From: an uncultured Myxococcales bacterium
GTDB taxonomy: Bacteria > Myxococcota > UBA4151
Assembly: GCA_964013405.1 (NCBI GenBank)
Contig: CAXGWI010000056.1
Location: forward strand, 1 to 20,231
DNA: 20,231 bases
Direction: 5' to 3'
Both the position numbers and the translations under genes were made by a program. The notes under the pieces are model-generated. The model saw only the letters and a program-made list of their open reading frames with translations, ran no database searches and had not been told where the DNA came from. Shown here piece after piece: positions 6,156 through 14,586 of the stretch. Every line of letters starts with the position of its first letter. Position 1 is the first letter of the stretch.

Positions 6156-6788
6156 TCAAGCACGAAAGCGTTCGCTCCCATCCTCGGCACTAATAATGCG
6201 CAGGGCCACCTCCGGTCCGAAGGCCTCCCGATAACGGGTCGCAATGGCCTCGAGGTCACCTTCGCCTAAAACCAATTCGACTTGCTCGTCGCTGATCTCT
6301 CCCAGCTCCAGGCCTTCCTCACCGGCGATTAACTGGCGGGCTTGCAAGCGATTGATGGCCTGACGGGGGCTGATCTCCCCCTCGGCCAGATCCACCAACT
6401 CCTGCCAAACGCTTTCGGCCGCCAACAAGCCCCGCTCCACCAACACGCCGAGGGTTTCTGGCACCGGCGGGGCCGCGGTGATGTCGAGACTGACCACCCA
6501 GCGGACGCTGCGTTGTTCAAAATCCAGATCCAAGCGCCCCACGGGGATCATGCCATTGAGGCGCAGCACGAACTCACCCACGTTGAGCAGCTGGGCTTCG
6601 GGGATCAGCAAGGGCCCCAGCACGAGAATACGGAAGATGCCCTGGTTCGGCTCCTCTGCAAGATAGACCTCCCAGGTTCGCTGTGTGCCTGAAAACACCG
6701 CCCGATGCCCCCGGCCCTCGGGAATCGGCTCCAGGTTCCAACCCCGGGTCGCGAAGGCCGCCCGAACAAACTCATCGGTTCTCTGCAT
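6156..6788 (-). CDS. YbjN-like domain protein (T3SS-chaperone-like fold) with acidic C-terminal extension
   Basis: VGEFVLRLNGMIPVGRLDLDFEQRSVRW resembles the YbjN 'EF..R.N.....G.F.LD...G.VR' motif. ATG 6788 follows AAGGAG at 8-nt spacing, preferred over GTG 6797. Confidence 0.65.
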   Translation of the reverse strand: MQRTDEFVRAAFATRGWNLEPIPEGRGHRAVFSGTQRTWEVYLAEEPNQGIFRILVLGPLLIPEAQLLNVGEFVLRLNGMIPVGRLDLDFEQRSVRWVVSLDITAAPPVPETLGVLVERGLLAAESVWQELVDLAEGEISPRQAINRLQARQLIAGEEGLELGEISDEQVELVLGEGDLEAIATRYREAFGPEVALRIISAEDGSERFRA

Positions 6789-6802
6789 CCTGGTCACTCC
6801 TT

Positions 6803-8869: not shown

Positions 8870-9835
8870 TTACTTCACAGCCGCTTCGCAGGCCTTCACT
8901 CGACCGCGCTTGCCGATGGTCAGACTCAGGACCATCGCACCCTTGCGGCCTTCTTCGCTCACCGTCGTTTTGGGGCCCGGTGGAAAACGCCACCGCGTCG
9001 CCGAGGGACAAATGCAGCGGGTGAAAGATTTCCTGCGCCGCTTTCGGTCACCGCCGCGCTTTTTCGCCTCAGCCACGCAGTCGGTGATTTCGGAACGGTG
9101 CCTTTCAAGGACCCGTAGGATCGCCGCATTGCGTTGGGGCTTGATGGCATCCAGCTTTTTCTGCGCCTTGCGCACGGCCTGTCGTTGACCCCTCGCCAAA
9201 CTGCGGGAGGGCAGGATGTATTCAGTCTCTCGGCTGGTCTGGAACCGGCGCACCTGACAACCCGAGGTGGAGACAGAGGCACGGATTTGTTTGACGGTGG
9301 CTTGGTCGGCCCCGTCGAGGCTAGCGATGGCCGCCAGATTCTCCAGACACCCGCAATTCAGCTTGCGTACAGGCCTTCCACCGATGCCTTTAACGGACCA
9401 ATCCCGCACGGCCCCCGCCTCCTTTGGCGCCAGTCGAGACTCCATGGCGAACGCATTGGGCAACTCGCAGGCTTTCCCCACGGCGTGCAGAGCCCACTTG
9501 ATCTTCCAGGGGGCCACACGCCCCTTCGCACCGGCGAGCTTCTTGCGCAGATCACCCGTGAGCGTCATGGCCTCCTGAAGGTAGCTCGCTCGAACCTTCG
9601 CTTGTTTGACATAGTCGGGGTGACGGGGGCTGAGGCCTGCACTTTTGGGGGCGTTGGCCGTCAGGAGCGCCAGACGACAGGCGATGCCGGGGGAGCTGCC
9701 CTTGCGCAGCAGGGTCGTGCGGGTGCACCGAAGCACGCCTAGGTCCCGAACCCGGGCAAGCGCGGCCTGATCCTTGGCGAGTTGGGTCACATTGGCGCTC
9801 GGGCTGATGGCCAGAAAGACAAGGCTGCTGATCAT
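8870..9835 (-). CDS. Hypothetical secreted, basic, Cys-rich protein with a C-terminal TonB_C/AgmX-PglI-like domain
   Basis: Signal-like N-terminus MISSLVFLAISPSA; 10 Cys; C-terminal elements ILRVLERHRSEITDC, RCIC....RWRFPP and MVLSLTIGKRGRV. Preceded by a GAGGAG RBS and abuts the mutS2 start. Confidence 0.75.
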   Translation of the reverse strand: MISSLVFLAISPSANVTQLAKDQAALARVRDLGVLRCTRTTLLRKGSSPGIACRLALLTANAPKSAGLSPRHPDYVKQAKVRASYLQEAMTLTGDLRKKLAGAKGRVAPWKIKWALHAVGKACELPNAFAMESRLAPKEAGAVRDWSVKGIGGRPVRKLNCGCLENLAAIASLDGADQATVKQIRASVSTSGCQVRRFQTSRETEYILPSRSLARGQRQAVRKAQKKLDAIKPQRNAAILRVLERHRSEITDCVAEAKKRGGDRKRRRKSFTRCICPSATRWRFPPGPKTTVSEEGRKGAMVLSLTIGKRGRVKACEAAVK

Positions 9836-9848
9836 GACAGTCGACTCC

Positions 9849-10109
9849 TCAGCGCATCGTCAGGGCCCCAAGGACCCCGATCAGGGCCAAGCCCCCTGCG
9901 TAGATTTGGAAGAACACAGGATCTACGGTGAGGCGAGCCCTGATTTCCTCGTCATTTTCGCCGCAAGCGGCCCGGGCGCCCAAGTAGTCGCCAGCGGCAA
10001 ACAAACGCTGCGCTTCGCTGGTTGTCTCTTCGGCAACGGCCGGGGCCGATAACGGCGCCCCCTCGGCCCGTTGCTTGGCCTTCTTTGCGGATTTCTTTCG
10101 CTTGCTCAT
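9849..10109 (-). CDS. Small tail-anchored membrane protein (86 aa)
   Basis: AAGGAGGAG RBS; ATGA overlap with the rarA stop; Lys-rich N-terminus; single C-terminal hydrophobic helix after DP. Confidence 0.75.
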   Translation of the reverse strand: MSKRKKSAKKAKQRAEGAPLSAPAVAEETTSEAQRLFAAGDYLGARAACGENDEEIRARLTVDPVFFQIYAGGLALIGVLGALTMR

Positions 10110-11401: not shown

Positions 11402-12202
11402 CTAAACCTGGGGGGAGCGTCCCCAGCCCAGCTTCTTGCGCAGGTGTTCGAGGGCGTCATCGTCCCCTTCCCGCAACAGGGTGATGGGCGTGGCGGCTTT
11501 GGTGATCCGAACCACCTGGTCGTGGACCATGGCAAATCGGGCTTGGCCATCGACGCTCAACCAGCCCTCACCATGAATTTGGACCTCAAGGCTCTCGTCA
11601 GGCCGCAGGACAAGGGGGCGAAAGCTGAAGGAATGGGGCGCCACAGGCACCACGACCATGGCTTCGAGGTCCGGGGCGAGGACGGGTCCCCCTGCGGACA
11701 GGGCATAGGCTGTACTGCCCGTCGGCGTCGCCACAAGGAGGGCGTCCCCCCGCAATCGAGCCAGGGTCTCGCCATTGCGCCGGAGACTAAACTCACCGAT
11801 GCGGCCGGCCTCAGCGCCACTGATGACCACCTCGTTAAGGGCCGGCCCCAGGGCAGCCATCGAGCCGCTTGAGACCTGTAGTCGCATCCGTGACTCCCGC
11901 TCCAAGCGGCCGGCCAAGGCCGCATCCAAAGCCGTTTTCGCCGCGCTGGGAGAAAAGGGCGTCAAATAGCCGAGCCTGCCCAAGTTGACACCGAGGACTG
12001 AAGCCCCTGAAGATCCCCACTCCCGGGCCCACTCGATCAGGGTGCCATCACCGCCAAGCACGATGACGAGATCACTGGCCTGCAGTTGCTCTTCGGGCTC
12101 CAAGGTACCGATATCGACGCCAGATCCCCCGTGGGCGATCAAGGCCTGGGCGAGGGACAGGGCCTGGTCGCTGCCCTCCTTACAGAAGAGTCGCACCCTC
12201 AT
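11402..12202 (-). CDS. nadK: NAD(+) kinase
   Basis: LGGDGT, GVNLGRLGYL, LNE, TPTGSTAYALSAGGP and DGQ motifs. ATGA overlap with the motB2 stop. Confidence 0.95.
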   Translation of the reverse strand: MRVRLFCKEGSDQALSLAQALIAHGGSGVDIGTLEPEEQLQASDLVIVLGGDGTLIEWAREWGSSGASVLGVNLGRLGYLTPFSPSAAKTALDAALAGRLERESRMRLQVSSGSMAALGPALNEVVISGAEAGRIGEFSLRRNGETLARLRGDALLVATPTGSTAYALSAGGPVLAPDLEAMVVVPVAPHSFSFRPLVLRPDESLEVQIHGEGWLSVDGQARFAMVHDQVVRITKAATPITLLREGDDDALEHLRKKLGWGRSPQV

Positions 12203-13014
12203 GGTTTGCGGGGCAGGATCCGCTGCCCAGCCCCTTCGCCACCCCCTTTGGTGGGGGCGCGAAGGCGCGCCGCATCGTCCTGTTTTAGACTCTTGGACTC
12301 AGCCCCCTTCATACGCTCGATGAAGCTGATTTCAATGCGTCTATTCTTCTGCCTGCCCCACTTGGTGGTGTTGGGAAAGACGGGCTCGAAAGCCCCCTTG
12401 CCCAAGGCGAGGACCCGACTCACATCGAGGGGCTCTGAATTGATGAGATAGTTGATCACCCGAGCCGATCGGGCCGCGGATAAATCCAGATTGGATCGAA
12501 AGGCCCGGGTCCGAAAGGGGCGGCTGTCCGTATGGGCCTCCACCAAGATATTCGCCTCGCTCTTGGCCGCCCGCACCGCGACTTCATCGAGAAAGCCGTA
12601 ATAACGGGGGTCGATGAGTTTTTGGCCCGATGGAAACATCCCATCACCGTTAAACCGCAAGGTGACCCGGTCCATGGTGCGCACCACCTCCGGTTGAATG
12701 ATCTCCATATCCTCGGGGGGGAATCGGGGCACCACGCTCTCGTTCAAGGTCTTCTCAAGGGCCTTCGCATTGAAGTTCGGATCCGGGTTCATCTCGATCA
12801 GATCCAAGGCTCCGGGGGGCTTAATCGTGACATCTGACTCCAGACCGAAGGCCTGCTTAACGTTACCAAAAGTCGATACGTACTGCTGGGGGCTGGTGAT
12901 TTTCGAAAAGGAAAGAAGCAACACGAAGAAGGTGAGCAACAGACTCATGAGATCGCCAAAGGTCACCACCCATGCGGGCGCCCCTTTGATGATGATGATC
13001 TTCGGCTTCTTCAT
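12199..13014 (-). CDS. motB: Stator B subunit (MotB/PomB) with intact OmpA-like peptidoglycan-binding domain (copy 2)
   Basis: TM WVVTFGDLMSLLLTFFVLLLSF with the conserved Asp; OmpA-like FPSG, VEAHTD, NLDLSAARS, NRRIEI. Confidence 0.92.
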   Translation of the reverse strand: MKKPKIIIIKGAPAWVVTFGDLMSLLLTFFVLLLSFSKITSPQQYVSTFGNVKQAFGLESDVTIKPPGALDLIEMNPDPNFNAKALEKTLNESVVPRFPPEDMEIIQPEVVRTMDRVTLRFNGDGMFPSGQKLIDPRYYGFLDEVAVRAAKSEANILVEAHTDSRPFRTRAFRSNLDLSAARSARVINYLINSEPLDVSRVLALGKGAFEPVFPNTTKWGRQKNRRIEISFIERMKGAESKSLKQDDAARLRAPTKGGGEGAGQRILPRKP

Positions 13015-13802
13015 TTGGCCTTGCCCCGACCCGGCCGGATCCCCCGGGCAAAGAAGACAAACTCGGTGATGTTGACCACCTTGTCTGGGTAGTTCTTCCC
13101 TTCGAGAACCCGCATCCCCCTCGGGCTCGCCGAGGGAATCACCTCTGCGGCTTTGACCCCCTTGACCCGGGTCCCCACCAGGTTCTCAGCACCGATCACC
13201 GCCCGTCGAGCCGCCGCTTCCAACTTGCTCACCCCATCGGCCCGCTTACGTCCCCGCTCCCGTAGGTCCATGCTGAACTGCTCGGTGGAAAGGACCTGGA
13301 CCTCAAGCCGAGCGTTGGCCTCTACCATCGTTTCAGCCATCACCTTCAGAACCGGCTTACTCCTTCGTTCTAAGGACTCACCGCCGGCCTCGAAGAGGTT
13401 GGGCGCAACGAAGCGAACCAAGACACCGCGCACATCGGTAAAACGCTCCACAGCACCGAAGTCATGACCCGGTGGGAACGAGTCTCGAACCTTCTTTTTG
13501 ATGATCGATTCAATGCTTTGATTGAAATCCCGTCGATTGAAGGTCTTAGCGATCACATTTTCGCTGCGAGGCATTTCGTAGATGGGATCTTTTTTCTGGA
13601 TCCCGAGGGCTTGGTCGATGGAGCCCCGGACCACTTTAAAGCGTTCCGGATCCATGGTGGCGAAACTCAGGAGCAGCACGAAGAAGGTGAGTAGGAGGCT
13701 CATCAGGTCGCCGAAGGTCACGACCCAGCCGGGTGCACCCTCGCGAACCGTCTTGATCTTCTGGAGACCTTCCTCCTCTTCCAACTCCTCCTCTTCGGAC
13801 AC
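13011..13802 (-). CDS. motB: Stator B subunit (MotB/PomB) with degenerate OmpA-like domain (copy 1)
   Basis: Same TM motif WVVTFGDLMSLLLTFFVLLLSF and a plug helix; the C-terminal domain keeps LFEAG but has no GHTD or NRR(V/I)E. GTG start follows GGGAGG. Confidence 0.85.
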   Translation of the reverse strand: MSEEEELEEEEGLQKIKTVREGAPGWVVTFGDLMSLLLTFFVLLLSFATMDPERFKVVRGSIDQALGIQKKDPIYEMPRSENVIAKTFNRRDFNQSIESIIKKKVRDSFPPGHDFGAVERFTDVRGVLVRFVAPNLFEAGGESLERRSKPVLKVMAETMVEANARLEVQVLSTEQFSMDLRERGRKRADGVSKLEAAARRAVIGAENLVGTRVKGVKAAEVIPSASPRGMRVLEGKNYPDKVVNITEFVFFARGIRPGRGKAK

Positions 13803-13827
13803 GGCCTAGACCCTCCCGGCGCGTACC

Positions 13828-14586
13828 CTACTCGTCATCGCCACGCCCGCTCGCGGGCAGATTTGCGATCAGCATACTGCGAATCGCGTTGGGGTTCGTA
13901 TCCCCCCGACCAATGGCCACCACGCCCTCAAGAATCAGGCGCTTGGCGAAGAGCTCTTCCTCGGATCGGAAGGCCAACTTATCGGCGATGGGCAGACAGA
14001 GCAGGTTGGCGATCATCGCCCCATAGAGCGTCGTCAAGAGTGCCACCGCCATCGCAGGACCGATGGCGGATGGATCCTCCATGGCCGAGAGCATCTGCAC
14101 CAAACCGATCAAGGTGCCGATCATGCCGAAGGCCGGTGCCACATCGCCCCCCATCTTATAGAGGCCGATGTTGGTGTCGTGACGGGCTTGAATCTGTCCC
14201 AACTCTGTCTCGAGGTTGCGCTTGATCTGACCTGCATCCACACCATCGACCACTTGGGCGATGGCCTGGCGCATAAAGGGGTCTTCCGGCTCCACGGATT
14301 CCAAGGCGAGGACGCCTTCCTTGCGGGCGAGGCGAGCCATTTCGACGATTTGTTCGATGAGCGCCATCGGGGCCGGTGGTGCGGCGAAAAAGGCAGCTTT
14401 TACCACCTTGAGACCATTGATGGCATCGGCCACGGGAAAACGCATCAGCAGGGTTGCGATCGTGCCACCCACAACGATCAACAAGGAAGGCACGTTGACG
14501 AAGATCAGCGCATTGCCACCGTTAACGATGGCAGCACCCACCAAGCCAATGCCGACGAGCAGTCCAATTAGAGTGGCGAGATCCAT
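13828..14586 (-). CDS. motA: Flagellar-type stator A subunit (MotA/PomA)
   Basis: MDLATLIG, PSLLIVVGGT, ARKEGVLALE (rotor-contact R/E), APAFGMIGTLIGLVQML, IGPAMAVALLTTLYG; 252 aa, PomA-like length. Confidence 0.95.
   Translation of the reverse strand: MDLATLIGLLVGIGLVGAAIVNGGNALIFVNVPSLLIVVGGTIATLLMRFPVADAINGLKVVKAAFFAAPPAPMALIEQIVEMARLARKEGVLALESVEPEDPFMRQAIAQVVDGVDAGQIKRNLETELGQIQARHDTNIGLYKMGGDVAPAFGMIGTLIGLVQMLSAMEDPSAIGPAMAVALLTTLYGAMIANLLCLPIADKLAFRSEEELFAKRLILEGVVAIGRGDTNPNAIRSMLIANLPASGRGDDE

Follow-up and report, generated by a model that had tools for sequence, protein, structure and literature searches.

One motA and two unlike motB genes in an uncultured marine myxococcotan bacterium: a candidate heterodimeric flagellar stator

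How is a single stator A subunit used when two different B subunits are encoded beside it? In the textbook flagellar stator, five A chains surround two identical B chains (A5:B2). With identical B chains, there are two wall anchors and two ion sites, and these cannot be changed singly. The window considered here, i.e. the whole stretch of DNA that was analysed, is a complete contig of 20,231 bases (C56) from an uncultured marine Myxococcales bacterium (3.9-Mb genome, 94% complete). A first-pass annotation had noticed in it a PomA-like gene followed by two MotB genes overlapping by 4 nt, and had proposed an A5:B1:B2 complex with only one wall anchor, or a first B protein repurposed to bind another partner. 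The order motA-motB1-motB2, on three minus-strand open reading frames, and the ATGA overlap are as described there (Table 1). On balance, we think that the trio encodes a heterodimeric A5:B1:B2 flagellar stator that is likely to be Na+-driven.

The subunits themselves are of the PomAB type. The closest solved structure to MotA is Vibrio PomA (E 4e-63), with an ungapped alignment over residues 1-228. MotA retains the rotor-contact residues R88, K89, E96 and D114 and the Na+-site residues T158, T185, T186 and A190 (Vibrio PomA numbering; roles taken from work on PomAB, PMC10374538); R88, K89, E96, D114, T158, T185 and T186 are present in 14 of 14 trio MotAs. With its torque-generating cytoplasmic domain and R88, E96 and D114, the A subunit belongs to flagellar MotAB/PomAB (FIT, TGI4 of PMC12505986). 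The best PDB sequence match of B1 is PomB, which is also the match of B2 among solved structures. Both B proteins carry a PomB-like T-x-x-D-x-x-S helix and score over the Pfam cut-off for MotB_plug, and thus have the transmembrane (TM) Asp and the plug/linker of flagellar stators. The ion-binding Asp of B1 (D32) is invariant in 30 of 30 aligned homologues. Na+ use is predicted from T158, T185, T186 and A190 of the A subunit and the Thr and Ser flanking the B-subunit Asp, the residues that characterize Na+-driven stators such as PomAB and MotPS (PMC10374538).

Six genomes make up the window's family. Distant trios are found in five genomes of other lineages, among the 80 top-ranking loci of the 550 that were confirmed in the genome collection. 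The first-pass annotation called the motA gene an orphan. This holds within the window, but the genome encodes a flagellar rotor. It has FliG and eight matches to the flagellin family, contigs C7 and C11 carry flagellar clusters (FliF/FlhA-type; FliL, FliM and FliN; names other than FliG were assigned by sequence recognition), and a second motA-motB-motB set lies before fliL. FliG is present in five of the six family genomes, the sixth being 59% complete, and in all five distant trio genomes. In each of these five, no full-length MotA of the flagellar type was found besides that of the trio, and no motAB precedes fliL in the three distant-genome clusters with upstream DNA read and flgE or fliM in view. 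The presence of FliG and the standing of the trio MotA as sole flagellar-type MotA found in distant genomes point to a flagellar role. A drive for a non-flagellar machine, of the AglRQS-gliding or ZorAB-defence type, would suit the myxococcotan host lineage and the location of the trio away from flagellar genes at all loci read. This is very improbable: MotA keeps its FliG-contact residues and full cytoplasmic domain, FliG accompanies the trio in the genomes just counted, and no conserved partner genes adjoin it (its neighbours in the family are NAD kinase and the secA region; at the one distant locus checked, a PPIase lies upstream). The trio also differs from AglRQS/TolQR/ExbBD motors as delimited in PMC12505986, in which B lacks plug and linker and an OmpA-like domain and the A cytoplasmic domain is condensed.

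The two B proteins part in the periplasm. B2 has the wall motifs H161-T162-D163, N175, R182 and N224-R225-R226 and matches both MotB_plug and OmpA in Pfam (OmpA E 4.9e-13), in agreement with the canonical OmpA-like peptidoglycan-binding domain first reported for it (AHTD, LSAAR, NRRIE). B1 matches MotB_plug alone, with no PF00691 (OmpA) match at E 0.1. Its H-T-D, Asn and N-R-R signature is gone, and by motifs and Pfam score its domain is not a canonical OmpA-like wall binder. Identity between B1 and B2 is 33% over 151 residues, with a local alignment that stops at B1 residue 169; a profile-profile alignment of 22 family B1 with 27 canonical B sequences ends at residue 171, immediately ahead of the H-T-D motif. 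One alignment shows other residues at the Asp column and at N-R-R in 8 of 8 B1, and the canonical ones in 17 of 17 other B. The stretches quoted for B1 in the first-pass annotation (EVQVLSTEQ, LEAAARRA, VNITEFVF) are indeed present, and its statement that B1 lacks the OmpA motifs is right as regards the intact signature and the Pfam match. However, the fold is predicted to be kept, E174 is invariant, and LEAAARRA likely holds a conserved pocket Arg (R200).

The AlphaFold model of B1 has a mean pLDDT of 75, mostly 83-94 in the periplasmic domain. Its top Foldseek matches are MotB, MotS and PomB periplasmic domains (2zov, 3khn, 9ljl), and superposition on PomB 3wpw (VIA) gives Z 15.2 and rmsd 2.9 over 143 aligned residues. 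B1 is predicted from this model to keep the full MotB/OmpA-like fold, which in B2 is recognized by Pfam. In B1 of the window's family, E174, D179, R181, R199, R200, N244 and E247-F250 are invariant, the first five in 22 of 22 sequences. An Asp/Arg pair of OmpA binds diaminopimelate (D271/R286 in AbOmpA, PMC12108004), and E174 and R200 are the candidates for it in this family, with a register that varies between alignments. R200 stands on the pocket-Arg column by MAFFT and by helix start, whereas the HMM register places Ala there; E174 stands on the pocket-Asp column given a one-residue insertion (HMM register), and may replace the pocket Asp in the window's B1. The distant B1 clade has other residues in place of both the pocket Asp and the pocket Arg, and the alignment that shows this has almost no gaps. 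Because the register is ambiguous and the charged residues are invariant, the B1 pocket looks remodelled and conserved rather than erased, and the loss of wall binding by B1 is likely but no more. The proposal of only one wall anchor is thus uncertain for the window's family and clearer for the distant clade. The other proposal, a B1 repurposed for another partner, is consistent with the patch of invariant charged residues, although a partner was not found.

Could B1 simply be a decaying, functionless duplicate that has lost its OmpA signature? This is hardly credible. Compared with its same-genus orthologue, B1 gives dN 0.098 and dS 3.4, and residues 168-255 give dN 0.145 and dS 2.05; dN/dS is about 0.03-0.07, a rough value as dS is near or at saturation. 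Purifying selection extends over the changed half, the frame is open in all relatives, the changed half keeps 53% mean identity and many invariant residues across 22 sequences, and the predicted fold is confident. The pseudogenisation that the first-pass annotation had listed as an argument against its own proposal can be set aside. The B1 domain does evolve faster than that of B2 (dN about 0.145-0.149 versus 0.054). This, and the keeping of all MotA-entry features without the canonical anchor signature, could mean that B1 is a regulator that enters stators, weakens their wall anchoring and tunes stator exchange or brakes, the working unit being A5B2(2). We find this improbable: the trio is the only stator found in the five distant genomes, with B1 as its first B gene, and B1 keeps the ion-binding Asp in all aligned homologues. 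At the protein level, B1 and B2 hardly differ in their TM segments, yet 14 of 25 shared codons are different. Recent gene conversion between the segments is thereby rejected, and their likeness suggests that one MotA constrains both rather than that one was copied from the other recently.

The trio is found with the same neighbours in all six family genomes. The best 80 of the 550 loci comprise 4 family trios, 5 other-lineage trios (one in Bradymonadia), 3 loci with two canonical B, 3 Magnetococcales loci whose only B lacks the pocket Asp and Arg, and 65 with one B, a few of them truncated. Of six metagenome loci, one is cut short. The trio is seen in all five informative ones, one of which is probably a second copy of a genome locus. 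A canonical B2 follows B1 in every case, i.e. in 11 genomes and 4 further contigs (15 distinct loci), and among these no lone member of the window's B1 clade was seen. Three of the conditions by which the first-pass annotation would have counted its proposal refuted thus do not apply: B1 has no intact OmpA signature, it is not a pseudogene, and relatives do have it, with B2 always next to it. Few sequences belong to the B1 clade (9 clusters in a 50%-identity library at E 1e-30 or better), and the 12 best clusters, several of which are fragments, all lack wall motifs. All degenerate B proteins fall in one clade (SH-aLRT 85 and 97 in two quick trees with long branches). A search of 401 genomes of the host phylum with distant B1 (16 matches at E 1e-22) returned no trio outside the window's family; the other 11 matches have a canonical B directly behind motA. 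In Latescibacterota and in one Myxococcota genome (loci L096, L123, L130 and L057), each of the two MotB behind motA has the Asp and the wall motifs; it is possible that such loci represent an earlier stage of these trios.

This distribution bears on a different reading, in which one MotA works with either B as a homodimer. There would be two interchangeable stators, B2(2) anchored to the wall and B1(2) held via the motor scaffold or the remodelled pocket, used depending on load or condition, and heterodimers would be incidental. The Asp and plug of both B proteins would allow this, and A and B2 have single-B relatives. A lone motif-less MotB exists in Magnetococcales, scaffold anchoring of stators is documented (PMC7990780), and each of the Aquifex B TM segments supported rotation alone when fused to the periplasmic portion from E. 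coli (PMC4525482). However, B1 of the window's clade never occurs without B2 at the 15 distinct loci, near-identical co-translated B helices would offer no obvious means of sorting into homodimers, and the other trio of the genome is implausible as two homodimers. We therefore regard two homodimeric stators as a possible but rather unlikely arrangement.

That other trio, motA-Bx-By-fliL-fliM-fliN, shows a complementary division between its B proteins. Bx has Ala at the TM Asp position, an OmpA match and both pocket Asp and Arg; By keeps the TM Asp and has no OmpA match and no wall motifs. The same pair recurs in four relatives within the family and in a further family, and only one of the four MotB of the genome is fully canonical. 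A Bx-profile search in Desulfobacterota matched 30 of 121 genomes. The 30 loci (L191-L220) comprise 18 with motA, a B without Asp and a B with Asp, mostly followed by fliL, 3 with two Asp-bearing B and 9 with one B. The Asp-less B directly precedes the Asp-bearing one in all 18, and never occurs alone in the 30 loci. In two Desulfosarcinaceae genomes, a single-B relative of the window's stator lies about 21 kb from the Asp-less trio. It is not plausible that Bx or By works as a homodimer, and this lends credibility to unlike B pairs, and to a single grip on the wall, in this lineage. The recurrence of such pairs (Bx/By; 18 of 18 in Desulfobacterota) gives indirect support to an A5:B1:B2 stator; it does not prove the B1:B2 pairing, since B2 is complete. 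A more far-reaching view is that all flagellar stators of this lineage are asymmetric and that this state was reached twice independently. The window's A5:B1:B2 would have two ion sites, a single grip on the wall and a new, conserved face that binds a scaffold; in the A5:Bx:By of the flagellar cluster, labour would be strictly divided, one B conducting ions and the other anchoring. Fixed B1/B2 polarity would then orient each stator relative to the rotor. This we offer as speculation that is itself doubtful.

In an A5:B1:B2 stator, five MotA would surround one B1 and one B2, and both B helices would conduct ions via their Asp as in an ordinary stator, so that rotation would follow the usual cycle. 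It is in the periplasm that the two B would differ: B2 would provide the standard peptidoglycan grip, and the conserved charged patch of B1 would bind something else, such as a scaffold protein of the motor or another ligand in the wall, or would grip the wall more weakly. In Borrelia in situ, the two MotB of one stator (rotor-proximal and distal) are in non-equivalent places and the MotB wall domains are contacted by scaffold/collar proteins (bioRxiv 10.64898/2026.10.14.759253). The window's trio would be a second stator set in this genome, beside that of the flagellar cluster, and apparently the sole set in the five distant genomes.

Several points weigh against such a stator. We infer the B1:B2 pairing from genomes, and the complete B2 could homodimerise without B1. 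An acid/Arg pair (E174, R200) may persist in the window's B1. The distant genomes are incomplete assemblies, in which another stator could be missing. A motif-less MotB can stand alone in its operon, as at the three Magnetococcales loci L078, L079 and L140, which have a single motA-motB and a MotB with H-T-S/G, Glu for the pocket Arg and N-H-R. The equivalent of PomA R232 is absent from the family MotA, being Asn in the window and Asn or His in six of six family members, with Arg in the other eight trio MotAs. Finally, the family MotA and B2 are nearest to single motA-motB pairs of Desulfobacterota (SH-aLRT 81-90). In these trees neither the trio MotAs nor their partner Bs form one clade, so that B1 was either lost there or arose twice.

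Table 1. Positions of the stator genes and related features. Coordinates refer to the window unless a contig is named.
Feature	Position	Strand	Basis
motA, pomA-type stator A subunit, 252 aa	13828..14586	-	Pfam PF01618 (MotA_ExbB) E 2.6e-27; PomA alignment
motB1, 263 aa, GTG start; PomB-like TM and plug (T29, D32, S35); predicted OmpA-like fold, remodelled pocket	13011..13802	-	Pfam MotB_plug only; AF2 model
Codon of B1 Asp32, the ion-binding aspartate	13707..13709	-	Sequence; homologue alignment
B1 periplasmic domain, about residues 110-252; predicted OmpA-like fold	13047..13475	-	VIA, profile alignment, alignment columns
motB2, 271 aa; TM Asp21 and canonical OmpA-like wall-binding domain	12199..13014	-	Pfam OmpA E 4.9e-13 and MotB_plug; PomB alignment; AF2 model
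ATGA overlap (4 nt) of motB1 stop and motB2 start	13011..13014	-	Sequence
NAD kinase gene, 4-nt overlap with motB2; kept as neighbour in the window's family only; not counted as a motor part	11402..12202	-	Pfam; synteny
Second trio, motA-Bx-By, ahead of fliL	G000:C7:25741-28025 (L013:10742-13026)	+	Sequence

The 4-nt overlap between the two motB genes cannot be taken as a mark of fixed stoichiometry, the motB2/NAD kinase overlap being identical and the five distant trios having gaps of 2-11 nt. Promoter and terminator scans of the locus gave no signal exceeding shuffles. In two marine metatranscriptome assemblies, four short contigs (151-215 nt, depth 4-6) cover motA and the motA/motB1 junction, which is insufficient for expression or co-transcription. 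Three minus-strand open reading frames of the window have no Pfam match, at 8870-9835 (321 aa), 9849-10109 (86 aa) and 6156-6797 (213 aa); the 321-aa gene adjoins mutS2 and is conserved in the window's family. Elsewhere in the genome (G000:C49:4160-10286, L017, minus strand), four membrane proteins in tandem carry single or doubled segments like TM3-TM4 of MotA. The torque domain is apparently absent from this cluster, no motB adjoins it, and one frame runs into an S9 peptidase (995 aa). Genomes G407, G409 and G410 have partial MotA matches of a similar kind. A divergent MotA-like gene (27-29% to the window's MotA) with a short MotB of ~207 aa is widespread in Myxococcota (L254, L185, L187, L063, L064, L066), unlinked to flagellar genes in the loci read.

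A natural heterodimer, if true, would permit asking whether one anchor suffices to hold torque and whether rotor-proximal and distal B have different jobs. The second trio, if heterodimeric, asks whether one aspartate suffices for the 36-degree alternating step model (PMC9389320). The host is uncultured, but the three genes code for ordinary membrane proteins, for which a laboratory motAB or pomAB mutant could serve as expression host. Exact-phrase searches for a MotB/PomB heterodimer or for motA-motB-motB returned no papers, and no description was found of the window's anchor-side variant, in literature coverage that mostly excludes subscription journals; nor was a published description of the Asp-less trios found. 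The word heterodimer is absent from the accessible part of the stator phylogeny PMC12505986, the sequence tables of which could include such trios, and the accessible parts of PMC9093738 and PMC7175107 have nothing on B heterodimers.

Among known systems, the Na+ stator of Vibrio, PomA5PomB2 (PDB 8BRD/8BRI; PMC10374538), gives the best solved matches for A, B1 and B2, and shares with the trio the Na+-site Thr, the rotor-contact charges, the TM Asp and a PomB-like plug. It differs in that the window has two different B genes, with a B1 devoid of H-T-D, Asn and N-R-R, and in the R232 equivalent, which is Asn/His in the family. The first-pass annotation likened the layout to the AglRQS gliding motor of Myxococcus, which likewise combines one subunit of the A type with two of the B type. 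AlphaFold predicts an AglR5-AglQ-AglS heterodimer (PMC11761067), and whether the Agl proteins form homo- or heterodimers was stated as unknown in PMC9389320. The parallel is useful as an analogy, but AglRQS is of the TolQR type, without an OmpA-like domain, and not flagellar. A nearer precedent, which also bears out the remark that tandem motB genes occur in other bacteria, is the published motA-motB1-motB2 operon of Aquifex aeolicus (PMC4525482; PMC4987623), again with one A and two B and of the Na+ type. The TM regions of its B proteins are 97% identical and their periplasmic regions 23% (PMC4525482). There, MotA/MotB1 and MotA/MotB2 are treated as alternatives and an OmpA-like domain is described in both B; in the accessible part of that paper, neither a heterodimer test nor a loss of wall-binding residues was found, and the accessible text of PMC4987623 likewise makes no mention of a heterodimer. 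The Asp-less motA-motB-motB-fliL trios of Desulfobacterota and C7 also join one A with two unlike B, but their asymmetry lies at the ion site, whereas that of the window lies at the anchor, both B having the Asp. The MotAs of these two trio types are in different clades, so that the types look independent. Thus the gene layout was already published in Aquifex, and the new element is an anchor-asymmetric B pair in which both Asp are kept.

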